Assembly (NCBI GenBank): GCA_964473825.1
Contig: CAYYQL010000004.1
Location: 32,001 to 96,000, forward strand
DNA: 64,000 bases
Source: an uncultured archaeon
GTDB taxonomy: Archaea; Asgardarchaeota; Thorarchaeia; Thorarchaeales; Thorarchaeaceae
Direction of reading: 5' to 3'
Shown here: in pieces, positions 22,032 to 39,800 of the stretch
Layout of the letters: the number at the start of each line of letters is the position of its first letter
How positions within the stretch are numbered: position 1 is the stretch's first letter
Notes under the pieces: generated by a model
The model's database searches: none
Told to the model about the DNA's origin: nothing
What the model saw: the letters and a program-made list of their open reading frames with translations, nothing else
Made by a program: the position numbers and the translations under genes

Positions 22032-22583
22032 GTGAAGCTGATCACTCTCGCCCGGGAGGCAGTTAGGATACTGAAGGAGAGTGGGGATGATGGTATTCGT
22101 AGCGACGAGGTCGCTGAATTTCTTGATGTCCCCAAGAGACGAATCTATGATGTTGTGGCTGTGCTAAGAGCATTGGAAACGGTCTCAACGACACGCAAGT
22201 TCGATGGTACGACTATCACATGGATTGATCGTTTCGAAGACTACATTCCTCGAAGTGAATATGATGCTGTTCGAAAGCAGCTGGATGAGGTCCTTGCTGC
22301 GAAACGAGAACTTCAAGTTCAGGTTGCCGAACAGAAACAACAACTCAGAAACATACGTGGCAGATTCAAGCATGATGGGGTGCCTGTCGAGAAGACCGAC
22401 AAGACCCAGTTCAATACCACTCAGCTCCGTGTGCGATGCCACTCGGGAACTGGTTTCAAGAGAGTGGTGGATTCAGGGGTGGAAGTACTCATTGAGACTG
22501 AGCAACCCGGCATGACTGTGGATCCGACTGAAACGGAATATGATGACAGTCGTGAGATACTGAGAAGCATACAGAAGATGTGA
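22032..22583 (+). CDS. E2F/DP-family winged-helix transcription factor with coiled coil and beta-rich C-terminus
   Basis: LITLAREAVRILKESGDDGI...EVAEFLDVPKRRIYDVVAVLRAL...TITW matches the E2F/DP RRxYD recognition helix; heptad repeat follows. Confidence 0.8.
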   Translation: MKLITLAREAVRILKESGDDGIRSDEVAEFLDVPKRRIYDVVAVLRALETVSTTRKFDGTTITWIDRFEDYIPRSEYDAVRKQLDEVLAAKRELQVQVAEQKQQLRNIRGRFKHDGVPVEKTDKTQFNTTQLRVRCHSGTGFKRVVDSGVEVLIETEQPGMTVDPTETEYDDSREILRSIQKM

Positions 22584-22961
22584 CTACCGCAATCTGATTG
22601 TGACTTGGCTTCCCCGTCGAACACTCTCCAGCTCATCTAGCAGACTGTCGGGGGATTTTACACTTCCAAGTAAGTTGACGGGGCTGAATGTCTTCATGTC
22701 CCTCACATAAATACAGAGCGAGTCCCCGAGGGGCATATATGCTACCTGTTCTCTCTTGACTTCCTTCGTGGCCTTTACATTACCTTTGCCGATTCCGAGA
22801 GTGATTTTCATCTCGCCCTTGATGAAGGCTGCCTTTCCTTGAATGGGCATTTTCGCTTTCATCTCTTCGACAATCAGGGGACCAAGAACTCTGTCGAGTA
22901 CTACGTCGAGCTTAAGCCCCCCTTCAAACTCGAGTACGATATTCACATCACTCTCGCTCAT
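22584..22961 (-). CDS. Cyclophilin-like fold protein (DUF369/TM1367-like)
   Basis: P..VE...KMPI.G, VAYMPLGDSLCIY and SPVNLLG. Confidence 0.75.
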   Translation of the reverse strand: MSESDVNIVLEFEGGLKLDVVLDRVLGPLIVEEMKAKMPIQGKAAFIKGEMKITLGIGKGNVKATKEVKREQVAYMPLGDSLCIYVRDMKTFSPVNLLGSVKSPDSLLDELESVRRGSQVTIRLR

Positions 22962-23039: not shown

Positions 23040-24197
23040 ATGGAGTATACTAGTAGGAGTGATTCGAGGCTGCCACTAACACGTCTAGAAGTTGCATTTG
23101 TTGTTGACACGACCGGGTCCATGAAAGACGACATCAACGCGGTGCGCGACAGTCTGTTCGACATCGTCGATGACATCGTCAAGAAGACTTCGGAACTGGA
23201 GATTCGCTTTGCCGTAGTATCGTACAGGGATCATCCTCCTGAGGATAGGACCTATGTGACTGATGTCTTCGATTTCACTGACAATGTGAAGGACATTCAC
23301 CGCCGTATAGGCCGACTGAATCCGTCCGAGGGAGGCGACACTCCCGAAGCTGTTGCCGATGGCCTCGCCGATGCGAGAAGACGGCTTAGCTGGTCGCGTG
23401 ACGCCTACAAGATCTTGCTGTTGGTCGGTGATGCCCCCCCTCACGGAAGAAATTACAATACTCTAGGGGACGACCATTGGCCGGATGGTTGTCCTGAAGG
23501 CTTGGATCCAAGGGATGAGGTCAGAAAGATGAAGCGTGAGCACGGAACGAGTTTCTTCCTGTTTGCCTGTGGATGCAATCCGTTGGTTGAAGACTCATTC
23601 AGATCTATAGCCGAATCCATTAAGGGTGGGAAATACTACTCTCTGGTGGAGGCTCACCAACTGCCCATAGCTATCCTTGAGATTCTAGAGGGTGTGAGTG
23701 ATCTTATCGAGGGCGATAGACGAGTACTTGACATCTACAGAGCTAATGATGGTTCCTTTGATATCGCTGAGGCGGCCGCCCAACTCGGAATGGAACTGAG
23801 AGAGATGAAGACCTCATTGTCGCGTCTGCTGGAACTGGGTAAGATCTCACGGTGGCCAAGAGGTCGTCCTTTGAGTCATGATCGCCTTGGAGTTGAGGTG
23901 GTCCTTGGAGATATTCCTTCGGCCATTCTTCCAGGAAGGGCCTTCAATTACGAGATCCGTGCGAAGAATCCTAGCAGAACCACCGTGGGGATACGAATAG
24001 TCATATCTCTGGTTACCTCCGAAGGTGTCTCTGAGGTCACAAATGAGAACCATGACATTGCACCGCGAAGTGACAGGATTCTCAAGCTGCGCTTGACCCC
24101 CATGGTGGACGTCCCTGGAAAGGCGACAATCGGTGTTGAAGTTCTTCATGGCTCTATGTCAATAGAAACAGCAACATATCCTGTAAGGATTCACTGA
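23040..24197 (+). CDS. vWA domain (intact MIDAS) + winged HTH + C-terminal Ig-like domain
   Basis: AFVVDTTGSM, YRDHPP, GGDTPEAV and VGDAPPH; FDIAEAAAQLG...SLSRLLELGKI; beta-sandwich-like tail. Confidence 0.85.
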   Translation: MEYTSRSDSRLPLTRLEVAFVVDTTGSMKDDINAVRDSLFDIVDDIVKKTSELEIRFAVVSYRDHPPEDRTYVTDVFDFTDNVKDIHRRIGRLNPSEGGDTPEAVADGLADARRRLSWSRDAYKILLLVGDAPPHGRNYNTLGDDHWPDGCPEGLDPRDEVRKMKREHGTSFFLFACGCNPLVEDSFRSIAESIKGGKYYSLVEAHQLPIAILEILEGVSDLIEGDRRVLDIYRANDGSFDIAEAAAQLGMELREMKTSLSRLLELGKISRWPRGRPLSHDRLGVEVVLGDIPSAILPGRAFNYEIRAKNPSRTTVGIRIVISLVTSEGVSEVTNENHDIAPRSDRILKLRLTPMVDVPGKATIGVEVLHGSMSIETATYPVRIH

Positions 24198-24199
24198 GG

Positions 24200-25369
24200 G
24201 TGGGAGAACTGGAGATGCAGGCAATCCGAGGGAAGGACCAAAGAGGAATATCATTTGTCAGGCCAGAAGACTGGCTGTCAGATGATAAGGTCGCCAGTAT
24301 CTCCTGTCAAGGTCGCACCGTCTACACCGACATCAGAACGGCCCAGGCAGTACCCTTAGGCCATATCGTGATTGACTCCAAGTTATATGACAGCCTCTCG
24401 TGTTCAGGCAAAGATGGAGTCGAGGTCATCCCAGAGAGTATAGCGCCATCGGTCTGCAAGACTCTCACGATTGAAGTTCAGTCTCTTGCTGGAATAGGCA
24501 GCCGCAGGGTCAAAGAGGCAGTTTCCGAACGAATCCGCGACTTCGGTCCACATCTTGATGACCTCCTAGTCACAGAGGGTCAACAACTCAATCTACAGTC
24601 ACTCAATCTTCGTCTCACAGTTCTGGGTCTCTCCCTGTTTGATTCGCGCGGCACGATTGGACGAATCAGATGGCCTCGCTTGGAAAAGATTGAACTAGTT
24701 GGGGGCGAGACTCCCGATATGTGCGCATTTGTGATTCTGGTTGAAATGTCGCGCATCAGAGGTCTCCAGGATGAGGATGATGCTGCACAGTCTGGTGCGT
24801 GGGCCTCCACTCCGTTCTCTGAGATCTTGATACGTCTTCTTGCAGGTCTGAGAGCATTCTCTGCATCAAATCCAACCAACGTCGTTGTGTCAGTGATTGC
24901 ATATTCTTCTCAGACAGATATCTTCTTGACATACGAGCCGGATTCTGGACAGAAACGAAAATGGTCCGAGATTGATATGGAAGGTTATCTTGAAGCCCTG
25001 CAGAACTGGCTTGCAGACCAAAAGGGCATTCATGATTCGCAGCCTTCTGATCCAGGACTGGCACTGCAGACAGGTTTTGCCGTCGTAGATGAGATGAGAG
25101 ATGATGGTCTGTACCCCGTCTGTATCGCGCTGCTCTCAACAGGTCGGTATTCGATAGGACAGAATCCTGTTTCTGTGGTGCGTCGACAACCCGGTAATAT
25201 CACCACGTTTTCGCTCGGGCTTGAATCTGCATCTGATGAAGATATGCTCAAGGCGATTTCAGAAGCTGGACGGGGGAGAGCAATCATGATGTCTAGGATA
25301 ACTGACATGCAATTGATGGTTGAGGACATGATTCAGATGATGGGGCGTGAGGTGGCTGCAGATGACTGA
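24200..25369 (+). CDS. Cdc48-N/Ufd1-like domain + degenerate vWA
   Basis: N-terminal half aligns with the 31082 gene (...GHIVIDSKLYDSLSCSGKDGVEV...LDDLLVTEGQQL); vWA with EMSR in place of DxSxS, SDPGLAL, LLSTG and DEDMLKAISEAGRG. Confidence 0.7.
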   Translation: MGELEMQAIRGKDQRGISFVRPEDWLSDDKVASISCQGRTVYTDIRTAQAVPLGHIVIDSKLYDSLSCSGKDGVEVIPESIAPSVCKTLTIEVQSLAGIGSRRVKEAVSERIRDFGPHLDDLLVTEGQQLNLQSLNLRLTVLGLSLFDSRGTIGRIRWPRLEKIELVGGETPDMCAFVILVEMSRIRGLQDEDDAAQSGAWASTPFSEILIRLLAGLRAFSASNPTNVVVSVIAYSSQTDIFLTYEPDSGQKRKWSEIDMEGYLEALQNWLADQKGIHDSQPSDPGLALQTGFAVVDEMRDDGLYPVCIALLSTGRYSIGQNPVSVVRRQPGNITTFSLGLESASDEDMLKAISEAGRGRAIMMSRITDMQLMVEDMIQMMGREVAADD

Positions 25370-26561
25370 AGAATTCATAGAACTGCTTCAGACCATGCAG
25401 TCCAATGGCACACTTGAAGGGTTCCTCTGCTCCCAGATTCCAAGCGGCAGACTATCCTCTGGATGGATTGAGAACGGTCTTTTGTTCACGAGTATGGAGA
25501 CTTCACTTCGTTCAGAAGCAGTCACAACCACGTACATGATTCCAGCAGACCGATTTGTACGGTTCTTCAAGCAGCTGGATTCCTCGGCCAAATCGAGCAT
25601 ATGCTTCAGCATCACGGGCCCGGCCGGTCTTCGAGAGGAGAAATCGCTCGTGTTGGTTGGCGAGGTATGTCAATCAGGATCCCCCCAAGTTCTGGCAGCC
25701 AGATTCTCTTCGTCGACTGCCACAGAGATATGTCAATTCATTGCTTCTCAACTGCTGCGCATACCATCGGATGAGGATCACTGTGAGCCTTGTTTAGATT
25801 ATCTGGAAGAACTCAGAGAGTTGGTGTTGAGCGAGGAGACCAGTGCGGCCTTGTGCCTGAGCATCCCCAAAGCAACCACACTCGTAAGAGAGGTATTCTC
25901 GCAGGATTCTGATCAAGAGTCCATTGAAGGGATTCTACTGCGTTTGGGTCAGATATCTCAGCTTCAATCGTTTGCAACCAAGGCTGTCACTTGGCTTGAC
26001 CGAACAAAGAAGTTCCAGGGCCAATCGAGCGAGGCGGCAGCAATTGTGTTACGAACGTCTCACCGACTCCTCCTCTGTCTGTGGGACGGACCAAGAGGCG
26101 TAGTCTCTTTCGCTGACATGACAGGTATGTCTCTTGAGAAAATGTCAGTTTCGTTGCTCCTTCCCCTTTGGATTGTTAAAGGTGAGACGATGGATCTTCA
26201 GGACTATGCCCCTCGTGTTCTCATTGATAAAGAAAATGAGGGCATCAAATCTGGGGAAAGGGATGCGACCCCTATACGGCGCGTCGAGAGTTTCGAAACC
26301 ATATCTCAAGAACTTGCTGCCTTAGAAAGTCGTTTGAACAGTGTTTCCCTTAGAGACCTCAGCAAGAGAGTGATGGATTTGGAGGATCGGTTTGATAGTA
26401 TCAAAAGGTTTACACAGAATGCTTCGTCTGATGAGAAGCGAATCAGTGCTGCTTATTCGAATATCGATGACCTTATATCTCGTCTGGAAAAAATATCTGG
26501 GCGGCTTGATAAGATAGCAGACGACCTCGAGATAGTCAGCGATCGACTGAAGGAGGAATGA
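25362..26561 (+). CDS. Hypothetical protein: two alpha/beta (roadblock/profilin-like?) domains plus C-terminal coiled coil
   Basis: Translationally coupled (ATGACTGA overlap, GAGGTG RBS); heptads in the last ~90 aa. Confidence 0.7.
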   Translation: MTEEFIELLQTMQSNGTLEGFLCSQIPSGRLSSGWIENGLLFTSMETSLRSEAVTTTYMIPADRFVRFFKQLDSSAKSSICFSITGPAGLREEKSLVLVGEVCQSGSPQVLAARFSSSTATEICQFIASQLLRIPSDEDHCEPCLDYLEELRELVLSEETSAALCLSIPKATTLVREVFSQDSDQESIEGILLRLGQISQLQSFATKAVTWLDRTKKFQGQSSEAAAIVLRTSHRLLLCLWDGPRGVVSFADMTGMSLEKMSVSLLLPLWIVKGETMDLQDYAPRVLIDKENEGIKSGERDATPIRRVESFETISQELAALESRLNSVSLRDLSKRVMDLEDRFDSIKRFTQNASSDEKRISAAYSNIDDLISRLEKISGRLDKIADDLEIVSDRLKEE

Positions 26562-26839
26562 CATACTTGTCGGGTTTAGAGGATCAATTGGAGCAGCTCC
26601 GAACGAAGCTGATGATGATTGAGTCTCTCGGCAACCGGATTAAGGACCTCGAAAGACATCTTGGGCCGATCGAGAATACCAGGGCTGAGAACCAGAGTGA
26701 TGATGTATACGAGTCAAGAATCTGGCGAGAACTTGATGAGCTACGTGGGTTTGTCGAAAGGCTATCTATTGCAGTCACTCAACTTGAATCTGAAGTTCAG
26801 ACGATGGCTTTGTCTACAAGTCATCTTGAAGATGATTGA
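26558..26839 (+). CDS. Small two-segment coiled-coil protein
   Basis: ATGA overlap with the upstream stop, GGAGG RBS, heptad pattern. Confidence 0.7.
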   Translation: MTYLSGLEDQLEQLRTKLMMIESLGNRIKDLERHLGPIENTRAENQSDDVYESRIWRELDELRGFVERLSIAVTQLESEVQTMALSTSHLEDD

Positions 26840-29445
26840 CCCCTGTCTAAACGGCGAAGAGCACTTGCTAACTCCTCTACCAGTTTCTGGACTGAGAGTG
26901 CATCCAGACTCACCGTACTTCTGTTCGCTGTCCTTGGCGAGTCAACGGAGCTCCGTGTTTCGAGTCTTAGAAGTTCAAAGCATTGGCTAGGAAGCACATC
27001 GATGAATCCCTGAGCCGCGTCATCTGAAGTGTCCCCTGAATCTCCGATGAGAATTGCCAGTGTCGGGCGCGACATACCAAAGTCATCTGTGTATTCGCCA
27101 ATCGCCCGATACGAGTTGGCAATTGCCTGGTCAGATTTCTCCTCTTGTAGGGCATCAAGTACGAATAGCTTCAGCGCGGTCTTCACCTCAGGGGACTCCA
27201 AATCTCTGTCAAAGTCGACGAAATCCTGAATGTCTTGGCCGTGTTGAATAGAGAACTTCCTCAGCCGCTCTCCGGCTATGCAGAGACCTAACCTTCCCTC
27301 TGACCTGTTCTCCTCTAATGATCCAAGGATGAGCAGTGCCGATACTACAGCTCCTTGGAAACGAGATGTATACGCTTCCGAAATGTCGAGAAGATCTGAG
27401 TAGCTTCCTAACCCCTGAAGGATGTCTTTGAGTTTCAAGGAAACAGAATATGGAGCCTCTATCCTCAAATCCTTGACAGTCATCTGTCTACTGAGCGCGA
27501 TACAGATTATGACATCAACATCCAGAAGGAATTCAGGCTGTGTGACAACTATTTCTGCCTTTGTCAAATCTGCCGTTTCGCCTGTCTTTATGGGGGGGTT
27601 CGTTCTGATCAGCTCAAGCGACAGACTTTCCCGAGTTGTAAACGGGTACACCTTACTGCCCCTTCCCAGAAGAAGCGGTCGGATAGTTTCTTCTGTCTGG
27701 TTTGATTGCAGATGAAGATATGACGACATCTCTCCTGGATCTACATTTTCTTGCGCTCTTGTGACGAAGATAGCTCTGTCAACCTTGGTTATGTTCTCCT
27801 GATATTCGGTTAGATCTATCTCCTCGCCAGACTCCAGACCGAGGCCTCTTCGATCGTCATCGGAGATAACTGCTGTTCTAGGTGCTATATCATGGCCCGG
27901 CAGACTTCTTGCCACCCACCATTGCCCCTTTCTCTGACTCTGGGCCAGAAGATTGTCTGCTGTCCTGCCAAGCGCGTCGATGTTCACATCAGCAAGACGC
28001 AGATATCCGCGCGGTACATCGCCGGTATCGAGTCGATATCTCAATGCAGCCAGTAGCTCCTGTGGTCTTCTAACGTTGAGGCATTTGGTCAGAGCGGTAA
28101 CATACGCGTTGAGTTGAATTGGCGAATCAAACACGATTGACGAAGTTCTAGAGTGCGATTTCACGAGGGTTCTCAAAGCGTTCGGGTCTTCAGAAACATC
28201 CGCCACATCAAACCGAGGACTCCAGGTGCAGATCTCAAGGCTACTGTTCGGATTCTCTCTTACAATCAGTGTTGTCCCACTCTTTGCCTGTTCATCCAAG
28301 AGCGTAAGGACATAGGTTGAGGTGTCAACTGTCCCTGATTCTTCATCATACAAGTAGTTGAACGATTCGAGTCTGTAATCTCTGCTAGAGGTGAGTATCT
28401 TAATCACTCTCTGCAGTTCTTGCATGGCAGGCCTACCTAGATGCCCTTCTGCAACTACACCCCCCTCTCGATCTTGGTATTTGAGATGTGGCGGTCTGAG
28501 TGGGATAACGGACAGAATGTTTCCGCTGAGCATTCGCTGGATGTCTTCTGGTGATGCATCGAGGTTCTTGCTCAGAAGATAGCTGAGTATCTCAGGTATT
28601 CCATCCCCCACGTTGGTCTCAGGGTAGTTCGTTCCAAATATTATGCGTTCAGACCAGCGGTTTCCGAGCTTCGTTTTCAGGGCTCTAATCAGTGAAGAGA
28701 GAGAAACAATGGTTGCCCCTGCTGTCAATATACGTGAATTGGGGATCTCAACAAGTTTTTCGATTTTATCAGCCCACTTCTTATGGTCGAGAACGTGAAG
28801 GATTACTGCTGGAGTTCCCAGCTTGGCGTCTTTCAGGAGGATGAGCCACTTCAGAACCTCATCCAGTTCATCAGACTCATCGAGTTGGATGAGTATTGCC
28901 CTTCCCCTCTTAACTAGACGAAGAATGTCGTTCCGGTATGCACCCTCCATCGTCTGCGCGATTTCGTTTGCTCTAACTGAGCTAGTGAAGCCCTCCTGCG
29001 ATCCTCTCTCCCTGGTCTCTTGAATTCTGAAGAATCGTCCTCCGTATTGGCCGTCTCTCGTTAGTTCTCTCACCATTCTTGAACTCTTCTCTTGGTTCCT
29101 CCTTGATAGATCCAGACCTCCAACGCTAAGAAGTGGTTTGACGGAGAACTGATCGACAAACCATTCGGTATCTCGTGCTCCAGCTGGTCCTCCGCACAGG
29201 CGAGCCAAGAAAGGTGGTTTCTTGAGATGGGCATAGGCCCTTCGAGGTAGATAACGGTACGAATGCTTGTAGTTGGCAACCAAGGAAAGAAGCTGTCCCT
29301 CCACTCGCGACACGTATGCAAGAGCTCTGTCAGGGTCGAAAGTCTTCTCGTGGCTGTTGAGGCTGACTACACCGAGCTGCATACAACCATCTACGACAAG
29401 GAACCGATAGATCTCTCTTGTCTTGAGGTCTTCAACAACCAGCAT
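26821..29445 (-). CDS. Degenerate amidohydrolase + linker domain + Cdc48-N-like + degenerate vWA fusion
   Basis: Colinear similarity to 29591-31078 (RWSERIIFGTNYP...YLLSKNLDASPEDIQRMLSGNI) and to 31082-32440 (DVIICIALSRQMTVKDL...SRFQGAVVSALL); metal ligands lost. Confidence 0.8.
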   Translation of the reverse strand: MLVVEDLKTREIYRFLVVDGCMQLGVVSLNSHEKTFDPDRALAYVSRVEGQLLSLVANYKHSYRYLPRRAYAHLKKPPFLARLCGGPAGARDTEWFVDQFSVKPLLSVGGLDLSRRNQEKSSRMVRELTRDGQYGGRFFRIQETRERGSQEGFTSSVRANEIAQTMEGAYRNDILRLVKRGRAILIQLDESDELDEVLKWLILLKDAKLGTPAVILHVLDHKKWADKIEKLVEIPNSRILTAGATIVSLSSLIRALKTKLGNRWSERIIFGTNYPETNVGDGIPEILSYLLSKNLDASPEDIQRMLSGNILSVIPLRPPHLKYQDREGGVVAEGHLGRPAMQELQRVIKILTSSRDYRLESFNYLYDEESGTVDTSTYVLTLLDEQAKSGTTLIVRENPNSSLEICTWSPRFDVADVSEDPNALRTLVKSHSRTSSIVFDSPIQLNAYVTALTKCLNVRRPQELLAALRYRLDTGDVPRGYLRLADVNIDALGRTADNLLAQSQRKGQWWVARSLPGHDIAPRTAVISDDDRRGLGLESGEEIDLTEYQENITKVDRAIFVTRAQENVDPGEMSSYLHLQSNQTEETIRPLLLGRGSKVYPFTTRESLSLELIRTNPPIKTGETADLTKAEIVVTQPEFLLDVDVIICIALSRQMTVKDLRIEAPYSVSLKLKDILQGLGSYSDLLDISEAYTSRFQGAVVSALLILGSLEENRSEGRLGLCIAGERLRKFSIQHGQDIQDFVDFDRDLESPEVKTALKLFVLDALQEEKSDQAIANSYRAIGEYTDDFGMSRPTLAILIGDSGDTSDDAAQGFIDVLPSQCFELLRLETRSSVDSPRTANRSTVSLDALSVQKLVEELASALRRLDRGQSSSR

Positions 29446-29590
29446 TAATCGTTCCCTCTTATCACTACGTATTTACTCTGGGCTCTACAGATATATGCAT
29501 AATGCGGGTGTTTAAGGAGCAATTCTTTGGAACGTACAGTAACAGTTTATGAGGGTCATCTACGTGCATCTCTACGGAGAGAAACTATCG

Positions 29591-31078
29591 ATGCTCATCG
29601 TCCGAGCTGTAGAGAATATCCCAGAACATGGTATCAAGCGAGACGACGAGTTCTCTTTGTATATAGTCGATTCTCACCATCATATGGGCCGCGAAGGTGG
29701 CCATCAGAACACCCCTTCTTCTGCCTACGAATTCTACACGTTGCTCTGGTTTGAACTGAAGAGCGCCGCTGAGAAGTACATGGATGCTGACTCTCTTCTT
29801 TTCGAACCGGTTGGCACAACACCTGTTCCTCTGACAGAGCAAGTACTCCAGGCAAGGGAATCTTGGTCATCTATGGGCCATGGTTGGCTTGTGGACCGAA
29901 CCGTCGTGTTTCCCTTTACTGATGACTACGCCAAATCAGGAGTGCCCGATTCTCCATCGTTCAGTGTATCTAATAACAAGATCTCGGGTTGGACCAGCCG
30001 TGCTCCACATTCTAGTCGTCTCATCGGCTTCGGCAGAGTCGACCCCACTGATGCTAGATATGGGAAACCCAACATCGCGGTGAGCGAGATCGAACGATGC
30101 CGAGATGTGCTAGGCCTTAGAGGTCTCAAACTACATCCACTTGCCCAGTTGTTTGTTGAGGAGATTGAGAATGAATCGACACGGGAAGTTGTTATGCGTG
30201 CTACCGAACTCTTCATGCCCATAGTTTTCGACACAAGGAATTCTAAGACTGTTGAACGAATCATGCGTCTAACTGAGGATATCATATCGACAGAGAAAGT
30301 GGGGATTCCCACAGTCATACTGGCTCATTGTGGGATGAGTCCCGGGAGTGAGTTTCTCTACGACGCCCTGTCAAGAACGTCTCTTTACGGTGACACATCA
30401 TCGCTACATGGAAATGATGTACCGGTGCTCTTCGAGACTGCCCACGAGCGGATCAAGTCTGATGCCTTCCGATGGTCTGAGAAGCTTCTATTTGGAACTG
30501 ATTATAGTTTCTTGACTACACAGGCGATAGATGTCATATTGTACCTCCTATCGAGAGACTTTCCCGGCACTCCAGCTGATATTCAAAGGATTCTCGGCGG
30601 CAACATCATGGGAGTCATCAACAGACCGTATCACACTAGGCATTACAGCAAAACTAAGCCTCGTCATCTCATCTCGACGAACTACCAGACGTCTCGTGAT
30701 GTAATCCAGAGGGCTTTGTGCAAGCAGCTGTCTGATGGTGATGTTGAGCTTCTGTCCATTGACTATATGATTCCACCCAAGCATACCTGGCCTGATATAC
30801 CAACGTCTAAGATGGGAAATGGGTTTCATCTCGACAACCTCTTCATCACCGTGCGTGCTGCATCGTCTGATGCTGTGATACACATCTGGTTGCGTCGTCT
30901 CCCTGATGATACAATGAGTCTTGCGTTAATAGACAGTGGGAGTGAACTCTCACCACGGACTCTTGAACTATCATCAGAAACAATGCCTCTGGCGCTAGAA
31001 GAGTGGCTCTTCGAGAAAGTTGAGAGGGCTAATGAGCATCAAGAATTGAACTCCCTCCTAGAACAGGCTCTTGCATAG
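29591..31078 (+). CDS. Amidohydrolase_2-family metal-dependent hydrolase with C-terminal extra domain
   Basis: VDSHHHMG, FGRVDP, GLRGLKLHP, ILAHCG and LLFGTDY. Confidence 0.85.
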   Translation: MLIVRAVENIPEHGIKRDDEFSLYIVDSHHHMGREGGHQNTPSSAYEFYTLLWFELKSAAEKYMDADSLLFEPVGTTPVPLTEQVLQARESWSSMGHGWLVDRTVVFPFTDDYAKSGVPDSPSFSVSNNKISGWTSRAPHSSRLIGFGRVDPTDARYGKPNIAVSEIERCRDVLGLRGLKLHPLAQLFVEEIENESTREVVMRATELFMPIVFDTRNSKTVERIMRLTEDIISTEKVGIPTVILAHCGMSPGSEFLYDALSRTSLYGDTSSLHGNDVPVLFETAHERIKSDAFRWSEKLLFGTDYSFLTTQAIDVILYLLSRDFPGTPADIQRILGGNIMGVINRPYHTRHYSKTKPRHLISTNYQTSRDVIQRALCKQLSDGDVELLSIDYMIPPKHTWPDIPTSKMGNGFHLDNLFITVRAASSDAVIHIWLRRLPDDTMSLALIDSGSELSPRTLELSSETMPLALEEWLFEKVERANEHQELNSLLEQALA

Positions 31079-31081
31079 AGA

Positions 31082-32440
31082 TTGATGCCACCACTCTTTA
31101 TAACGACACAGGCACTATTCAAGACGAATTCGACTTTGGAGGCCGCAGCAATAACGAGAAAAATCGAAGTTGAGATTCTGGACGGTGGTAATCAAAGAGG
31201 CTTTGCCCTGCTGAATCCAGAAACCATGAAACAGTTGGATGCTGAGATTGGTTCAATAGTCCTGTTTGAAGATCCTCAGAGCAGTTTCTGGGGAGCAGCT
31301 GAGGTTAGAAAGAATGAGGATCTGGATGAAGGGAAGATAGAGGTCGACACTCTTGTCTTGGAGGCATCTCTCTTGATGGAAGGAGATTTGGTCGATCTAC
31401 AACTCTATGATGAAGATATGATCGCGCTAGAATACGTCGAGTTCGGGCTCAAACCCTTGACCGAGGATGCAAACACTGATGACCTTGTTTCTCGAGCATC
31501 TAAGAGGGTGAAGAGTCTAGAGCAGTTGGTGGGTGGGCGTCTCGTATATCCGGGAATGTCGTTTAGCTGGCCTGAAATGGAAGTTAAAGTTGAGATTCTG
31601 AAGACTCGTCCCTCATTAACAGGCAAGAATTTCGCAAAGCTCGCCTTTGAGGCTCTGAGAGAGAAGACTGGCTACCAATTCAAGACCGTTGGCATTGCTA
31701 GCCCATTCAATGCTATTCTCTGCATTGACACAAGTGGGTCAATGAAGACAACTGATGTACCCGTTCAGGACATAGCTCATGCAAGAGAGGGTCTGAAAGA
31801 TTTGGCTGGTGATAATCCAGAGGTCCATAGTTTTCTGAACCGCTTCGATGAAGGAGCCAGAGTGAGCCGGGCTGAGGCGGCAGCAATGGCTGTCTTGCTG
31901 TATCTGGCAGAGAAAGTTGGGCGAGGTTACGGTGAGAAGGTGGGAGTCATCACGTTCGAAAAAGAAGTGAGCGAGATGACCTTCCTTGACTCCGAGACTG
32001 GTGCCGTGAAACCATATGTTGAATGCACGGGTCGGGAGAAGGCTCTAGGGTTGCAGATAATCAGCACCCACGTTGTAGACAAAGTAGAGGAGGGTGGCAC
32101 GCTTACTGACATGGGAACCGCACTGCTCAAGACACGAGAAATCCTCGATGCATTTGGAGATGAGTCTAAACCCGCCATGTTGATTATGCTCACTGATGGA
32201 ATGACGACAGCTGGGTCTCCTCCTCTGAAGGTGCTGAAGGAGCATTTTCCCAACAGAGATAGACTGGTGATTTACTGCATTGGTTTAGGCGAGAGAAGTG
32301 AGATTGATGAGGAGCTGATGCTGGCCATGGCTCAATACGGTAACGGCACATATCGCCATGTTGACAACATGAGGGATCTTCTAGAGTGGTATGGAAGGCT
32401 TGCTAGTGAGTTCGCAGTGGTGATACGAGGACGCGACTAA
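31082..32440 (+). CDS. Cdc48-N/Ufd1-like domain + vWA with intact MIDAS
   Basis: RGFALLNPETMKQLDAEIGSIV (double-psi barrel as in Cdc48/VAT-N), GGRLVYPG...VEILKTRP; ILCIDTSGSM, TDMGTAL, MLTDG and IYCIGLG; start probably ~31136-31151. Confidence 0.8.
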   Translation: MMPPLFITTQALFKTNSTLEAAAITRKIEVEILDGGNQRGFALLNPETMKQLDAEIGSIVLFEDPQSSFWGAAEVRKNEDLDEGKIEVDTLVLEASLLMEGDLVDLQLYDEDMIALEYVEFGLKPLTEDANTDDLVSRASKRVKSLEQLVGGRLVYPGMSFSWPEMEVKVEILKTRPSLTGKNFAKLAFEALREKTGYQFKTVGIASPFNAILCIDTSGSMKTTDVPVQDIAHAREGLKDLAGDNPEVHSFLNRFDEGARVSRAEAAAMAVLLYLAEKVGRGYGEKVGVITFEKEVSEMTFLDSETGAVKPYVECTGREKALGLQIISTHVVDKVEEGGTLTDMGTALLKTREILDAFGDESKPAMLIMLTDGMTTAGSPPLKVLKEHFPNRDRLVIYCIGLGERSEIDEELMLAMAQYGNGTYRHVDNMRDLLEWYGRLASEFAVVIRGRD

Positions 32441-32441
32441 G

Positions 32442-33623
32442 TCATTCATGACTCATGGCGTCAGCGAGCCCCCTGAGGCTTTCCTCATCCATTTCTCTTA
32501 TCTGGTCCTCAGGGAGGCCTGCGAGTACATCTTCTGGTATGCTTCTGAGGAGTTTTGCCTTTTTCCTGCCGTATTTCTGAACCAGTTCGTCGCTTTCTTC
32601 TTCCTTGCTTGACTTGACCAGTTCCTGAAGCTCGTCCCTAGTCAGCTTCGCTATTGCTGCATCCGTCATTGACTCTTTGACATCATCTGGTAGTTCAGAA
32701 ATCAGCTTGTCTTTTTCATCTTGATCTTCTGCCTCTTCAGCAGAGCCCACCAAAGCTTCTAGTTCCTCGATGCTCAAATCATTCAGAGTTTCTTCCGGTA
32801 CAGAATCGAGAACTTCCTTCGGTATCTTTGCAAGTAGTTGCTTTCGAGTGGGTCCTTTTCTAACACGCTTGACCCTCTTGACCTTGCGAACCTTTACTTT
32901 CTTTTTCGCTGGCTTCTTTTTCGCCTTCTCATCTGATGGCTCTTGTAGAGAGTCTACCAGCTCTCTTGCAGTCTTGGCTGTGAGCCGTCGGATATCTTCT
33001 ATCGGCAGGGATTCTCTCACGTCACTCGGCAGTTCTGATAGAATCTCCTCTACTTCAGGGTCAAGTGAGGGGCCCTTTTTCCGAGATGGTGATTCAAGAT
33101 CATCCTTCTTCTCTTCTAGGATGATTGGAGTTTCCATATCCTCAATGAACTCCTCAACATCGACCTCGATGTCGAATTCCTCCTTTCTCCATCTCATGTA
33201 TTGATCTATGGCCTTGGGTCGAACCTTCAACGAGAGAAGATACGTACGAATCTCGTCTTCCAACATTTCGGGAAAGTCGGCCATGACCCTCTCGATGTCC
33301 TCTTCGGGAAGTCGCGCCCATATCGGGCCACTTACAAGCTTGGATAGCCCGGCGGCACAATGAGAACGCACCCAAGTGTTCTCGTCCTTGAGTCCTTTGA
33401 GAAGGTCGGGGATTGTCTTGGGCTGATGATACCATGCCAGCGTCTGAGCAGCTGCTATCCGTACGTCTACTTCGTCATCATCAAGTGATTTTGCTATCTC
33501 GTCCACTATGTTGGGGTCATTCATATCTGCCGCGGCCAGCAGTGCTCTCTCTCGTATTGTCTCTGATGGATCCGAGAATGCCTTGACAAGAGCATTTCTC
33601 ACTCTCTTGTCCTCCCGTGCCAT
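32442..33623 (-). CDS. HEAT-repeat protein with four C-terminal ~33-aa helical repeats and a Lys-rich patch
   Basis: D.SETIRERA, D.EVDVRIAAA and D.NTWVRSHCA HEAT repeats; repeats of (L/I)PxDV/(I)PKEV; KKKPAKKKVKVRKVKRVKRVRK; start set at MAREDK. Confidence 0.85.
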   Translation of the reverse strand: MAREDKRVRNALVKAFSDPSETIRERALLAAADMNDPNIVDEIAKSLDDDEVDVRIAAAQTLAWYHQPKTIPDLLKGLKDENTWVRSHCAAGLSKLVSGPIWARLPEEDIERVMADFPEMLEDEIRTYLLSLKVRPKAIDQYMRWRKEEFDIEVDVEEFIEDMETPIILEEKKDDLESPSRKKGPSLDPEVEEILSELPSDVRESLPIEDIRRLTAKTARELVDSLQEPSDEKAKKKPAKKKVKVRKVKRVKRVRKGPTRKQLLAKIPKEVLDSVPEETLNDLSIEELEALVGSAEEAEDQDEKDKLISELPDDVKESMTDAAIAKLTRDELQELVKSSKEEESDELVQKYGRKKAKLLRSIPEDVLAGLPEDQIREMDEESLRGLADAMSHE

Positions 33624-33846
33624 TCTACCCACTTTTTCGGTTTCAAACTCCAACAGCAACCGACGTGTTTCCGACAATCGAGCTCTCTCCTGACGATACT
33701 CTGTCTTCCTATAGGTAATATACATAGTGGCTCTCTATAGTCTAACGTAATCAATTCTTGACAGATACTTAAATCACTTGGCTGAATGTATCTATATACA
33801 CCCGATATAATCCTGGTGTTACGCACCACACAAGATTTAGGAGGGA

Positions 33847-34710
33847 ATGAATCTCACAGAAATGATATCCATGAGTGATGAGCAAAAGGACAAGCTGTTT
33901 CGGGTCTTGCTTTTCGTGTTACTCATAACTGGCATCATTGAGATTCAACCACTTCTCAGGGCGTTTCTGTCGGGCGACTTGCTTTCCCTCTCAATGACTC
34001 TTGCTTTCTTTGGTGTTCTATTCCTGATGTATGGCCTTGTGGTCAAATTCTTGGAGATGGAAGGAAAGAACGACTTGTCAACCGTGGGCGTAGATATAGA
34101 CGGTGATGTTTCGCTTGAACTTCTGCTGGGGGGCATAGCGGGAGGTCTAGCTGCTGCATCTGTGTGGGGCATAGGATACGCATTTGGTGCGGATCTCAGA
34201 GACCTAGCACAGATATCAATGGGCCTGATTATCGGCCAGGTATTGATTGGCACCCTTGTCGCTTTCTTCGAAGAACTGGCCTACCGTGGATATATGATGA
34301 CACGGATGTCTGACCTCTGGGGCAGAGGAACAGGAATAGTATTGTCCTCCCTCATTTTCTCACTTCTCCACTTCAGCTGGTGGACTCCTCTTGGTCGTGT
34401 TCCCTTCTCTCTCATACTTCTGTTCACCTTCAATCTCTTCTTGGGTGGTGTAGTCCTTGGAACATCGTACTATCTCTCCGGTGAACGCCTATGGGTTCCG
34501 GTGGGTTTCCATTTCTTATGGAATGTGGTAGCATATGTTTCGTTCCCCACATTCCCTCTAGAACCAGTTTCTAAGCCTGAGTTGTTCCAGATTGAGTGGG
34601 GCATCACTACTATTGTGGGATTTCTGGTTGGCCTAGCGATAGTATACTCTCTACTGCGAGCATTCCACCGAGGGAAGAGTAAGGGACTGCTGCAAGTAGG
34701 TCCCGACTAG
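33847..34710 (+). CDS. CPBP/Abi (CAAX protease-like) intramembrane metalloprotease
   Basis: EELAYRGY, FSLLH and HFLWN. Confidence 0.88.
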   Translation: MNLTEMISMSDEQKDKLFRVLLFVLLITGIIEIQPLLRAFLSGDLLSLSMTLAFFGVLFLMYGLVVKFLEMEGKNDLSTVGVDIDGDVSLELLLGGIAGGLAAASVWGIGYAFGADLRDLAQISMGLIIGQVLIGTLVAFFEELAYRGYMMTRMSDLWGRGTGIVLSSLIFSLLHFSWWTPLGRVPFSLILLFTFNLFLGGVVLGTSYYLSGERLWVPVGFHFLWNVVAYVSFPTFPLEPVSKPELFQIEWGITTIVGFLVGLAIVYSLLRAFHRGKSKGLLQVGPD

Positions 34711-34712
34711 AT

Positions 34713-35507
34713 CTATTCGTTCTCCGGATCAATTCCGGAAGGCTTTGGCTCTTCGTCTTCAGGTGTCGAGCTTAGAAAGTCAGTATTTGTCTGTATCATT
34801 GCAGCCCTAACGACTACATACAGTGATGCAACTATGAGGGCAGCAATCAGCCTCTCGACAGGATAGAGAAAAAGAACCCCTAGGAATATACCTGTCATCG
34901 CTGTGACATCGGCACCGATGATATGAATGAAATACATTGCCGCCAACGAATTGCCTACAGCATTGTCAACCATAACAGCGACGAAGCTAAGAGGATAGAT
35001 CTTCAGACCTTTGGATAGACCGTTCGTATTGTTTCCTGTTTCCCACGGCATTCGAGACGTCAGATTCGGATGTAGTAGGAGTATGATGATGCTGAGGCTT
35101 ACAATGTGAGGTAGAAGAAACGGATAAGCGATGCCCCCGAGAGGCCCTACAAGAAAAGCAACAAGTGACGCGAGGTATACTGCTAAGACCGGGAGTACTC
35201 TACGGGTTCTAAGCCCTCCCGCAGCGAGGGCGCCTGCTCCAGTGGCCAACGGTGTAAATGGCCCAATCACCGCGATTGCGGGATCGAGCATGATAGCAAG
35301 ATATGACCCCATCAGAACTGATATCGGGCCATATATCGGGCCGAGAATGAAACCTATCAATGGGCCGCTGATAATTCCCAGAGATATAATCCCCGTAGTG
35401 CCAAGAACGATGCTGTAGGGGATTAGCGATATCACCAGATGGAGTGCGGCAAATACTCCAGTCAATGCCCAGTGGACTGAGGTCGATTTCTTCAAGGTTT
35501 TACCCAC
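34713..35507 (-). CDS. ECF transporter S-component-like membrane protein
   Basis: ALTGVFAAL, PLIGFILGPIYG and YPVER; ~6 TM. Confidence 0.7.
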   Translation of the reverse strand: MGKTLKKSTSVHWALTGVFAALHLVISLIPYSIVLGTTGIISLGIISGPLIGFILGPIYGPISVLMGSYLAIMLDPAIAVIGPFTPLATGAGALAAGGLRTRRVLPVLAVYLASLVAFLVGPLGGIAYPFLLPHIVSLSIIILLLHPNLTSRMPWETGNNTNGLSKGLKIYPLSFVAVMVDNAVGNSLAAMYFIHIIGADVTAMTGIFLGVLFLYPVERLIAALIVASLYVVVRAAMIQTNTDFLSSTPEDEEPKPSGIDPENE

Positions 35508-35597
35508 ACCTCGAAAACGTAGGAATCCTGGTGATATGTTTGCCTCTTAGTTCTATCTGAACCTGTACTCTATCAGTCAGAGTGAACCTTAGATGGG

Positions 35598-36527
35598 TCA
35601 ATTACTCGATGATGCTAGTAACCAGAAGAACAATCCACCGAGTATCCATACAAAGAGCCCGGCTCCCAATACAACTCCCAGTGCTGCTCCCATCCCTGAA
35701 GAGCCAAAGTTGACATGCATATTCGTGAATCTCTTGAATCCGCCTACGTACTTGGTCTCATAGCCGCAGTGGAACTCCTTGTCTATGATGGCTCCACAGA
35801 TATCACATACGAATCTGTTCTGAGCTACGGCACCAATCAGGCTATCGAGATTGCATCCAATGAACGCAGTCAATATCGATAGGGGCAGGACAAAGAGCAT
35901 CTGGGCTGGATTAGAGATAGGCAGTACTCCCGGAGCGAACGTCGCATATATCAGTGCAATCAGGCCAATAGCAAATCCTGCAAAAATCGCAACAGCCTCT
36001 CCCAGGAGGGAAACCCCGCCAATCGTTCCTGCAGGAACCTTCCTTCGGAGATTGGTAATCAACCTAGGTTTGCTCTTGCTGAATACTCCAACTTCACTAG
36101 CAAGGGTGTCTGCAGAAGTTGTGGCTACAGCTCCGATGAATCCTCCAAACATCCAGAAGGGAATCGACGGATCCACCAATCCTTGGTCTGCGAATGCCTG
36201 ACTCACGTAGATTCCAATGGAGAAAAGCATGGGTATCAGTCCACTACCAAAGACGTTCTTCCAAGATCTCTTGCCTTTTCCTTCTTGAGCCAGATTCCTC
36301 TTGGCCTTTGCCTTGTATTTGAACTTCGTTGCCAGTCCTGCACTAACGAAGAAGAAGAGAAGAATCGTGAATGCGCCGACGCCACCAGTATACCAGACTG
36401 TAAAACCGACTACGAAAGCGCTGATGAGCCCAGAAATGTCAACAAACCCGAGTCTGTAGGTAAGGGCACCAATAATACCCATGACAATGAGCCCCGAAAC
36501 AGCTGGGTGGACCAGTATTTGCATCAT
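35598..36527 (-). CDS. DUF92/TMEM19-family membrane protein
   Basis: RSWKNVFG, ADTLASEVG, PRLIT, GTIGGVSLLG and DSLIGA. Confidence 0.9.
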   Translation of the reverse strand: MMQILVHPAVSGLIVMGIIGALTYRLGFVDISGLISAFVVGFTVWYTGGVGAFTILLFFFVSAGLATKFKYKAKAKRNLAQEGKGKRSWKNVFGSGLIPMLFSIGIYVSQAFADQGLVDPSIPFWMFGGFIGAVATTSADTLASEVGVFSKSKPRLITNLRRKVPAGTIGGVSLLGEAVAIFAGFAIGLIALIYATFAPGVLPISNPAQMLFVLPLSILTAFIGCNLDSLIGAVAQNRFVCDICGAIIDKEFHCGYETKYVGGFKRFTNMHVNFGSSGMGAALGVVLGAGLFVWILGGLFFWLLASSSN

Positions 36528-36886: not shown

Positions 36887-39800
36887 TTAGTAGACTGTGA
36901 ATTGCTTCTTTTCAACTTCGAAGGCTCTTGATGGAAGCTGTCTTCCATACTGTGACATAACAACATCGAGGTAGAAGTTCGTAATAACATCAACAGGCGG
37001 GGTCGTCCAATCAATCTCTGTATGGAGTATTCCGTCGTTTAATGTGTCAAAGGGGATATGAAACTCAGCAGAAAGATCTCGCCGAGTCATAATTCTCAAG
37101 GAAATGTGAAGCTTGTCAAGATCAAGACTTCTTGAGATGATTTCTACGGCTATCTTCACAGGTGTTACACGGGGAACTAACCCGGGTATCGGTCTACCCC
37201 TTTCATCCCTCACATCGAGTTTGACCATGAAGACTGGATTATCGATAGCCTTCACTTTGAACTGTTTCTTGTGTGATGACTTGGAGTCTGCATAGTTAAG
37301 ATCAACTATCAGATGGGCTGTACTCATCTCCGCCGATATTGGTACCCTGAATTCCACGGGCAACAGGCTGAATCTATCTGGTTCCAAGAGAACCTCACGG
37401 GTCATCAATGGCTCTATTCCCACAACGGTTTCCAGCTTCACACTAACTTCAGCCCGCTCTGGATTCTCTGTCTGATTAATCAGGTGAATCACAGACGATA
37501 CCTTCTGATCTGGTTTCACAAAACTTGGAATCCCACTGAACGAGACTAGTGTTCTGGCCAAGGTTCTCTCCTTAAGCATAACGAACGCGCTTCGTCGGTC
37601 CAGAAGCATACCACCATATAGTATCTCTGCGATTATTTCGACTTGATTGCTTTCCGAGGCATCAGGCTCCGGGATTTCAAGGGGGCCAAAGGCAAGTGAC
37701 AGGTTTCTGGCTTGATTGACTGGCTGTTCGATTGCTAGAATGGGTTCAGACTCACTATAATTGAACCACAGCTTCAGTGTAGCCGGCTCGCCTTCTTCCA
37801 CGTTTCTGCGGATTCTTAACCATCCGCTGATCTCCTCACCAACTCTGGCTTGTTCTGGAATGCGGAGTGAGTCAATATTCATCAATACTCCTTGGTCACT
37901 AACCATGAATCGTTCTGATTCGGTGACAGAGACTTCTCGTGAGTCCTCCCAGAGAGTTGCTCTAATGACTCCGCTTCTAGCCTGGGGTGAACCTTCAAGC
38001 GCGGGAACTCGCCAATGAATTACCGCCGGTCTTTCCAAGGCATTTGACATTGAAGATGATTCGATCCTATGATTCTGTCCGGAATCTGCCACGAAGCTCA
38101 CATCAAGCTTTGCATCATCGAGTTTCTTTGTCCCCTGTGTTGTCATACTGAGCTCAATAGGGACTGTGTCTCCGGGATGTACTACCGTGCCAATGGTGGT
38201 GCTGAGTGAAATATGAACTGGTCTTCCAGTGAAGCCTACATAGAACGGCTTTGAGATATTTGAAGATATTCGCGTTCCTTGTCTGTCATCGATGGTCATC
38301 CTAAGACGACACCTTTCCACACCCTCTAATGCATCTGCGGGTATTATCAGGGGTGAAAAGTCGCTGCTGTGTAACAGAAGGATACCACTTCCACCCAGGA
38401 CCATCCTCTTTTGTGTTTGAGTAAGACTCATCTCCTTGGCAGGGGCGATAACTTCAATCGTCGAATCAATCTCAATAGGCGCAGGATAGTTGGTTTCGAT
38501 TTCTCCCTCAAAAAAGACCGGAGCTTTTCCGTCTGCGAATTGCGTGGTTGTTGTAGGTCGTAGGCTTGCTTTAACCCAATATGTATTGAGAGTCGCTGAT
38601 ACTGGGATTTCTCTTCCTGCCACTCCGACGTTGGCTATGACATTGTACGCAGTAATTCCTGGCCTCGTCTTGAAGGATACATCGATGATGTGGACCTCCC
38701 CGCTTTCTATCCTCGTTATAGGGTGTATATTTTGTGCGACGAGGTTCCTGTCAGAGTCTTCGACAGAATAGTTCACCCCAATCCCCGCAATCTCATGTTC
38801 GGATGAGTTCATCACGGTGATCTTGAACTCCGCCTCTTGACCTGCAAACACTCTGTCTCTGCCTACGACTATCTCAGGTTCGATGCCTTTCCACCAACAA
38901 AGCCATGTCGGGAGCTTGGGCATCCCCTCTAGTGGATCATATAGCCAGTTTGTACAGCATTCTCTCGTTATCTCGGCCAGCTTCTTGAGGAGAACAACCA
39001 TGTTGTTGTCGGACTGGGCGAAGACATCAAGCTGGAAATCAGCACCTGTTGTCTTGTTGGCAGTTGTTTCACTTCCAAAGACAGTGACAAAGAGTGGTTG
39101 CATGAATGGGTTGTCTATTAGTCCAAGTTCTTCGATTTCATCTCTGATGAGATAGAGCATCGATACTACTGCATCACCAATGAAACGGTTTCTCTTTGAG
39201 GAGTGCAGACGGCCTGATTCATCAATCTGTCTGTTATATACATCGATGAACTCGTTCGAGTCCTCGGATTCGGAAGTGTGAAAGGGTCCCCACATGCCAG
39301 CAACCACCGCGTTCTCACGATTGGCTGAGAGGCAGTCAGGCCCCACATCAGGAATCTCTACACCTCTTTCCACCATCCTCTTGGCCTTCAGTGCTAAGGC
39401 CTGCAGTAGCAACGCTATACCCACTCGCCGAGGAATCGAGAGTTGGGTGTCGAAGACTCGGAGTTCAATGGTATTATAGTCAGTAAACGGATACATGTCA
39501 ACCATGCGGGCAAAAGACCGGTTTACGTGCTTTGCAAATGCATCTTTGTCCGGTGTTCTCAGGTAGGGTATGAATTCGAACTGACTAGTTGGACCCAGCT
39601 GTGTGGTGTTCTTCAGAAGCCGAATTGACCTCTTGCATTTAGGAGCTCTCGTGTTACCCTCATCATCTAACTCAACCACATCTGTGGGCATCTTATTCTC
39701 GAAAGGCGAGTTTACTGACAGGGCGATCAGATGCGGAATGAAATTCCTAATCATATTGTACACGCCTATCTTCACATCAGGTGAAACCTCTGGACCAAGG

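Follow-up and report, generated by a model that had tools for sequence, protein, structure and literature searches.

What function could a gene cluster serve that carries several Cdc48-type N domains and several von Willebrand factor type A (vWA) domains and contains no AAA ATPase? The question is raised by eight genes (g1–g8) of an uncultured member of the Thorarchaeaceae (Asgardarchaeota), found in positions 32,001 to 96,000 of contig CAYYQL010000004.1 (NCBI GenBank assembly GCA_964473825.1). This whole stretch of 64,000 nucleotides is referred to here as the window. The original prediction took the cluster for a hetero-oligomeric complex of active and pseudo-subunits that couples a metal-dependent hydrolase to AAA- or proteasome-type substrate handling. 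The follow-up analysis presented here favors another explanation, held with about even confidence, namely that an Asgard-wide three-part module, composed of an amide-bond ligase, a metal hydrolase (g6) and a Cdc48N-vWA scaffold (g7), is present here in its Thorarchaeota form. The ligase gene sits 3 kb beyond the span first reported and was absent from that account. The main rival is a small-molecule pathway, and roles as a forerunner of the GATOR1 scaffold or as AAA adaptors are less likely. The mix itself is unusual, bringing together an amide-bond ligase, a metal hydrolase, ATPase-less Cdc48N-vWA docking proteins and ancient dead-enzyme fusions.

The Core Trio in Asgard Genomes

A sample of 400 Asgard genomes was surveyed, in which f-numbers denote families and G-numbers genomes. 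Homologs of g7, of the ligase core and of g6 were found in 253, 252 and 250 genomes, respectively. All three are present in families f1–f3, f11, f13 and f15–f23, and none of them was found in the remaining 19 sampled families, among which are f4–f10, f12, f14 and f24–f30. Within f1, the genera labelled g8 and g15 (labels of genera, not of genes) are without all three members.

When the window genes were mapped onto loci of other Asgard families, the conserved neighbors of g7 outside Thorarchaeota proved to be g6 and a ligase homolog. The complete trio is contiguous in families f3, f15, f16 and f19, g7 adjoins the ligase gene in f23, and the ligase gene adjoins g6 in f11, f17, f18, f21 and f22. 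Two complete trios per genome are carried by G115 and G117. Judged from such genomic patterns, the trio appears to be one functional unit that was duplicated as a set. The trio is adjacent in many lineages; the eight genes of the cluster were never all found together outside Thorarchaeota.

Natural fusions tie the members together further. In the metagenomic protein P0190 the vWA part is fused to the ligase (E 4e-69). The cluster gene g5 joins a g6-like barrel to a g7-like protein, and fusions of the g5 type are also present in Jord/Freyarchaeota. The hydrolase-vWA and vWA-ligase fusions speak for a physical association of the vWA protein with both enzymes. A further natural fusion, P0154, combines a g7-like with a g1-like protein. 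Shared gene order within one family can result from descent alone, and functional weight is given only to the trio and the fusions.

In a set of 1.8 billion representatives, g7 finds relatives in only 143 clusters. Those with names that were sampled all belong to Asgard archaea, a taxonomic range that rests on a few cluster names. A structural search of the ESM Atlas with g7 gave an archaeal cluster as its single full-length match, and a protein atlas search returned vWA clusters only. In full-text literature searches combining Asgard with DEPDC5, GATOR1, von Willebrand and Cdc48, or carboxylate-amine ligase, no description of the module was found. The trio is regarded as an undescribed gene set which, within the sampling, is confined to Asgard archaea.

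The surroundings of the metagenomic proteins were inspected as well. P0190 is encoded at the end of a 100-kb metagenome contig (L081 8001–10889), where its neighbors are a 7-deazaguanine DNA-modification set (TGT, QueC, QueF), DNA methyltransferases, TIR and SLATT, a setting that looks like a defence island. The short metagenome contigs with P0121, P0124 and P0129 offer little gene context.

Domain Structure of the Core Proteins

The AlphaFold2 model of g7, with a predicted local distance difference test (pLDDT) of 88, contains a double-psi barrel (residues 28–125), a second N subdomain (126–205) and a vWA domain (207–450). The p97 N domain aligns with this model over 188 columns at a template modelling (TM) score of 0.73 by target. 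A profile of the N part only matched designed double-psi beta-barrels (DPBBs) at 3e-6; its matches to DEPDC5 and to archaeal and yeast Cdc48 lay between 2e-5 and 5e-5. The proposed double-psi barrel fold of the N domain is borne out by both the model and the DPBB profile matches. In possessing the barrel and the second subdomain, g7 resembles the N domain of Cdc48, p97 and VAT, but it carries a vWA domain where the D1 AAA ring would be. No AAA match was obtained with Pfam on any of the eight proteins, and g7 shows no Walker motifs.

The vWA part of g7 (Pfam VWA_2 at 3e-8) matches solved vWA domains with Z values of 19–22 and a root-mean-square deviation (rmsd) of about 2 Å over about 180 residues. 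Among 50 aligned relatives, the metal ion-dependent adhesion site (MIDAS) residues D216, S218, T342 and D372 show no variation and S220 almost none. A vWA fold with a complete MIDAS is also found in ITIH1, TFIIH p44/Ssl1, ArnB, the Sec24 trunk and BatB, none of which has a Cdc48-N module or a link to a ligase/hydrolase pair. The MIDAS metal site typically grips a carboxylate of a partner protein. The combination of a peptide-binding barrel with a MIDAS suggests that g7 is a docking or scaffold subunit. Long forms of the g7 family (650–1013 residues) occur in Loki-type and related lineages, for instance at L007 8462–10642, L008 7417–10455 and L011 8322–10628; an extra CDC48_N-like barrel was seen at the N-terminus in all three long forms scanned.

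The hydrolase g6 scores 35.5 bits against Pfam Amidohydro_2, which exceeds the cut-off, and its residues D41, H43, H45, H196, H260 and D318 are invariant in 31 sequences. Its AlphaFold2 model (pLDDT 85, predicted TM score 0.89) shows a TIM barrel followed by an alpha/beta domain (residues 372–508). A fold search was needed because the search of PDB sequences with the g6 family profile gave weak LigW and decarboxylase matches only (E about 0.01). The neighbors found by Foldseek were LigW, IDCase, gamma-resorcylate decarboxylase and LigJ at about 1e-9, as well as LigI-like structures, with 10–17% identity. With this Amidohydro_2/cog2159 group g6 shares the TIM barrel bearing HxH (beta-1), His (beta-5), His (beta-6) and Asp (beta-8); it differs from the group in its low identity and in the extra C-terminal alpha/beta domain. 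This domain is confidently modelled and is retained in the g5 protein.

The ligase family profile matched the YbdK structures 1r8g (8e-14) and 1tt4 (3e-13), and the ExE, HxH and ExR motifs are retained. Against NCBIfam TIGR02050 the ligase reached 5.5e-15, but scored 55 bits as compared with a curated cut-off of 176; the Pfam score was likewise below the cut-off. As the motifs are kept and the curated scores missed, the ligase is assigned to the YbdK/GCS2 superfamily as a member, not as an equivalog. It has in common with the solved YbdK/GCS2 enzymes the motifs of the catalytic core, and it departs from them in being tied to a vWA protein and, in Thorarchaeota, in its C-terminal extension of about 650 residues.

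Besides the trio, the Thorarchaeota cluster contains altered copies of its members. The g2 family is a full-length paralog of the g7 family (hhalign E 3e-30, 375 columns). Residues 1–392 of g5 align to g6 (hhalign E 8e-35) and residues 468–851 to the g7 family (hhalign E 1e-40). The HxH motif and the beta-8 Asp are lost from g5 according to its family consensus, and the MIDAS Asp/Ser are absent from g2 and g5, the latter being judged also by family consensus. From these alignments g5 appears to be a doubly dead fusion of g6-like and g7-like proteins. Pfam scanning gave weak matches to vWA on g2, to Amidohydro_2 on g5 and to CDC48_N on g7. The domain census of the original prediction was thereby reproduced, with four vWA domains of which two have an intact MIDAS (g1, g7) and two have lost it (g2, g5), three Cdc48-N modules each directly before a vWA domain (from the g7 model and the hhalign alignments of g2 and g5), and one intact and one degenerate amidohydrolase, distinguished by the invariant metal ligands of g6 and the lost ligands of g5.

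Prediction of a complex of g6 and g7 gave a median ipSAE of 0.32 (runs 0.60, 0.17 and 0.32), against 0.00 for the best control; the runs shared at least 63% of their contacts, with partner pLDDT values of 74 or more. In the benchmark, 58 of 80 solved complexes and 2 of 110 mismatched pairs attained the mark of the g6-g7 pair; only 7 of these 80 had passed with a value of 0.60 or less, and both mismatches that passed lay in that range too. The g5 fusion and the conserved adjacency of g6 and g7 favor a physical complex between the two.

Proposed Function of the Module

The module would likely act on a carboxylate substrate, with ligase and hydrolase paired on a scaffold. The vWA protein would hold the substrate, probably through a protein carboxylate at the MIDAS or a peptide on the barrel. 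The ATP-dependent ligase would then activate the carboxylate of the held substrate, most likely a protein or peptide, and join it to an amine, and g6 may reverse or further process the product. The additional subunits in Thorarchaeota would probably be non-catalytic and serve structural or regulatory functions. By analogy only, such an arrangement may be compared to the Pup system (PafA/Dop with Mpa), which also combines an amide ligase of the glutamine synthetase fold with a reversing enzyme and a docking module. The two differ, however, in that the Pup_ligase family gave no match on the ligase at E≤0.5, no ATPase lies nearby and the hydrolase fold is unrelated; no Pup-like gene was seen either, in an analysis where no search was aimed at a tag gene.

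If the trio writes and erases a protein modification, it would represent a novel system of post-translational modification in the archaea most closely related to eukaryotes. The unit of study is also corrected, since the ligase 3 kb downstream belongs to it, and the natural fusions may guide reconstitution.

Several observations weigh against the three-part module as described. In f22, the largest family, the vWA gene stands apart from the ligase-hydrolase pair and lies beside gelsolin and Roadblock genes. The ligase falls far under the curated YbdK cut-offs and might thus catalyze a different reaction. Among solved structures, g6 is closest to decarboxylases, hydratases and lactonases rather than to amidases, which leaves an amide-cleaving role conjectural and the earlier suggestion of a de-modifying hydrolase an unsupported conjecture. 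The modelled complex of g6 with g7 is weakly predicted. Of the complex of active and pseudo-subunits first proposed, the pairing of active with dead sets (g5, g2) stands, and the complex of g6 with g7, at a median ipSAE of 0.32, is weakly supported by prediction. Finally, the synteny of g1, g3, g4 and g8 within Thorarchaeota could stem from common descent alone.

Alternative Explanations

The best-surviving alternative, unlikely but to be taken seriously, is a metabolic pathway in which a small molecule is processed first by the ligase and then by g6, the vWA proteins serving only to assemble or regulate the enzymes. For instance, an amide conjugate of an organic acid might be formed and then decarboxylated or hydrolysed. 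Such a pathway would agree with the structural neighbors of g6, the best of which are small-molecule decarboxylases, hydratases and lactonases, and with the annotation of YbdK/GCS2 relatives as glutamate-cysteine ligases. The adjacency of ligase and g6 is moreover the tightest in the trio, and in f22 this pair stands without the vWA gene. Nevertheless, the vWA protein has the same family-level distribution as the enzymes and, in some lineages, occurs as a fusion with one or the other of them, and no further metabolic genes were found conserved near the trio. Cdc48-N and MIDAS vWA domains are, in addition, protein-binding modules.

A second alternative, rather improbable, arises from the structural search. 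When whole g7 was compared with the PDB by Foldseek, the nine best matches were DEPDC5/Iml1 chains (E 3e-14 to 2e-11, about 430 columns; among them PDB 9v0j_C, 9xzy, 9o5e_H, 8fw5_A, 7t3a_A and 8ae6_W), ahead of p97 N-D1. The N-terminal domain (NTD) of DEPDC5 is NSF/Sec18-N-like and its SABA domain is Sec23-trunk-like (review, PMC8534245). Likewise, g7 has a Cdc48/NSF-N-type double barrel directly before a vWA/Sec23-trunk-like domain, with no ATPase. The family might then be the forerunner of the NTD-SABA part of DEPDC5/Iml1, a scaffold for regulators of small GTPases (Roadblock, longin), with the enzymes as a side association. In line with this, the N-domain profile matches DEPDC5 residues 40–123 at 2e-5. 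Roadblock/LC7 and gelsolin genes adjoin the long g7 forms of f21 and f22 (here 650–815 residues) in 13 of 15 loci, the other two being cut by the contig end, and NPRL2-like longin proteins have been reported in most Thor genomes (bioRxiv 10.1101/2020.10.19.343400).

The superposition of g7 on DEPDC5/Iml1 is poor, however, with TM scores of 0.36–0.40 and an rmsd of about 10 Å, and the Cdc48 N domain scores equally well by sequence. The g7 protein ends after the vWA domain and lacks the SHEN, DEP and C-terminal (CTD) domains, no DEP match being obtained, and its MIDAS is intact and invariant. The Pfam IML1 model gave no match on g2, g5 or g7 at E≤0.1, and a six-frame genome search with it (PF12257) returned one 12-bit match at chance level on another contig. 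The NPR2 model likewise found nothing beyond chance level in the source genome. The neighbors of g7 that are conserved across the phylum are the ligase and the hydrolase, not GTPases or NPRL2/3, with Roadblock as a conserved neighbor in f21 and f22, and the gelsolin-Roadblock pair of the source genome lies on another contig (C1:295100–296453; L042 8101–9469). In the literature on GATOR-like proteins of Asgard archaea, longin/NPRL2-like proteins are reported and no DEPDC5-like one. Descent of the NTD-SABA half of DEPDC5/Iml1 from the Asgard Cdc48N-vWA family is thus rather improbable. Had it taken place, the GATOR1 scaffold would go back to a docking subunit in an archaeal machine of ligase and hydrolase, and the gene of this subunit would already have sat beside Roadblock and gelsolin genes in Loki-type lineages. 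The g7-type protein is in any case the only known prokaryotic protein with the front-half layout of DEPDC5/Iml1, which makes the origin of the GATOR1 scaffold testable.

Some further details of the gelsolin loci may be added. The gelsolin of f21/f22 is a two-domain protein (PDB 7whg at 8e-14). The gelsolin-Roadblock/LC7 pair is conserved at L007 6924–10645 and at L011, L019–L021, L023–L029 and L031, usually after a YjeF gene, and in f16 a gelsolin gene stands beside a trio. In the source genome a two-ring Cdc48-like AAA gene (C1:304356–305567) lies about 8 kb from the gelsolin-Roadblock pair, which may be coincidence.

The weakest of the three, and very unlikely, is the original prediction that the proteins are substrate adaptors which feed a host AAA machine (Cdc48, PAN or MoxR) and are coupled to a de-modifying hydrolase: Cdc48-N-type and vWA domains are known to serve AAA machines as adaptor modules, and the genome encodes Cdc48-like and MoxR-like ATPases elsewhere, but no AAA or MoxR gene occurs on the contig or among the conserved neighbors in any lineage examined (MoxR-like genes, PF07726, being present on other contigs only), the phylum-wide partners are the ligase and the hydrolase, and the ligase is left out of account. 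Overall, no evidence was obtained that couples the cluster to AAA or proteasome machines. What the same prediction said of the cluster itself, that it contains no AAA ATPase, agrees with the lack of any PF00004 match on the contig. A defence system was rejected as a candidate, PADLOC having given a generic HEAT match on g8 only.

Gene Content of the Thorarchaeota Cluster

The open reading frames (ORFs) considered are g1–g8, arranged in four units of transcription direction, and the ligase gene downstream (Table 1). The span first reported runs from the ATG of g1 at 23040 to 33623, a Met inside g8.

TABLE 1. Genes of the cluster and its flanks, with coordinates as window positions (aa, amino acids; TM, transmembrane).
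Gene	Position	Strand	Features
E2F/DP-type	22032–22583	+	Winged helix; Pfam E2F_TDP 1e-9; directly upstream of g1
Cyclophilin-like	22584–22961	-	Directly upstream of g1
g1	23031/23040–24197	+	vWA protein, 388 aa, ATG at 23040; C-terminal part of about 170 aa without domain assignment
g2	24200–25369	+	Cdc48N-vWA paralog of g7, MIDAS lost, fast-evolving
g3	25347–26561	+	404-aa orphan; C-terminal coiled coil (about 310–404, heptad scan)
g4	26558–26839	+	93-aa coiled-coil protein; start overlaps g3 stop (ATGA)
g5	26821–29445	-	874 aa; apparent dead fusion of g6-like barrel without metal ligands and g7-like Cdc48N-vWA without MIDAS
g6	29549–31078	+	Amidohydrolase superfamily (Amidohydro_2 group); metal site intact; alpha/beta domain 372–508
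g7	31082–32440	+	452 aa; Cdc48N (double-psi barrel and second subdomain) and MIDAS-intact vWA; no ATPase
g8	32442–33725	-	HEAT-repeat protein; four helical repeats of about 35 aa in C-terminal part
CAAX/Rce1-like protease, 264-aa multi-TM protein, DUF92	33847–36527		Between cluster and ligase
Ligase	36887–40315	-	1142 aa; YbdK/GCS2-type core (N-terminal, about 470 aa) and C-terminal extension of about 650 aa
	40300–41025		Upstream of ligase

The tight packing of the eight genes is confirmed by the ORF spacing, with gaps or overlaps of 2–23 nucleotides within a strand. Of the four units, g1–g4 and g6–g7 are encoded on the plus strand, g5 and g8 on the minus strand; g5 and g6–g7 are divergent with 103 bp between them, and g8 is convergent with g7. 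No transmembrane-like segment was found in any of g1–g8, the sole hydrophobic run (in g5) being a core strand of the vWA domain, which is consistent with the cytoplasmic appearance noted before.

The g1 protein matches Pfam VWA_4 at 1e-13 and VWA at 4e-11, and its MIDAS (D-T-T-G-S, then T, then D), read by eye and unaligned to any reference, looks intact; comparison of g1 with PDB sequences gave nothing useful. The two coiled-coil proteins and the HEAT protein of the original prediction were recovered by the heptad scan and Pfam: heptad-like stretches cover residues 310–404 of g3 and the entire g4, and g8 matches HEAT_2 at 2e-13. The family matches of g3 are limited to weak coiled-coil models, and the protein atlas contained no usable match to it. 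In the C-terminal half of g8 (32442–33065) an L-P...D/E...L pattern recurs, and charged linkers, including a very basic one, lie between the repeats, to which no family was assigned.

The Thorarchaeota block is syntenic in ten further genomes (nine genera, two families), with the order E2F/DP-like, cyclophilin-like, g1, [g2, g3], g5, g6, g7, g8, CAAX protease, 264-aa membrane protein, DUF92 and ligase. Among the loci examined, only those of Thorarchaeota have g1, g5 and g8 next to the trio. The presence of g2 and g3 within the family is patchy; g2 is carried by 52 of the 86 genomes of the family and is known from 8 of its 16 genera, with 25–34% identity outside the genus, and g3 stands behind g2 in other Thorarchaeota genera. 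No homolog of g4 was detected in any other genome examined. On this comparative evidence, Thorarchaeota seem to have gained g5 as a dead fused copy of g6 and g7, g2 as a MIDAS-less copy of g7, g1 as a second MIDAS vWA protein, and g8, g3 and g4. The most conserved gene of the cluster is g7, and the rates of evolution within the cluster are strikingly unequal; identity across genera is about 80% for g7, about 50% for g6, about 30% for g5 and 25–34% for g2.

The gene upstream of the ligase is not conserved alongside it in other lineages. The E2F/DP-type and cyclophilin-like genes keep their position upstream of g1 in ten other Thorarchaeota genomes, and the CAAX/Rce1-like protease, the 264-aa multi-TM protein and DUF92 keep their place between cluster and ligase across Thorarchaeota genera.

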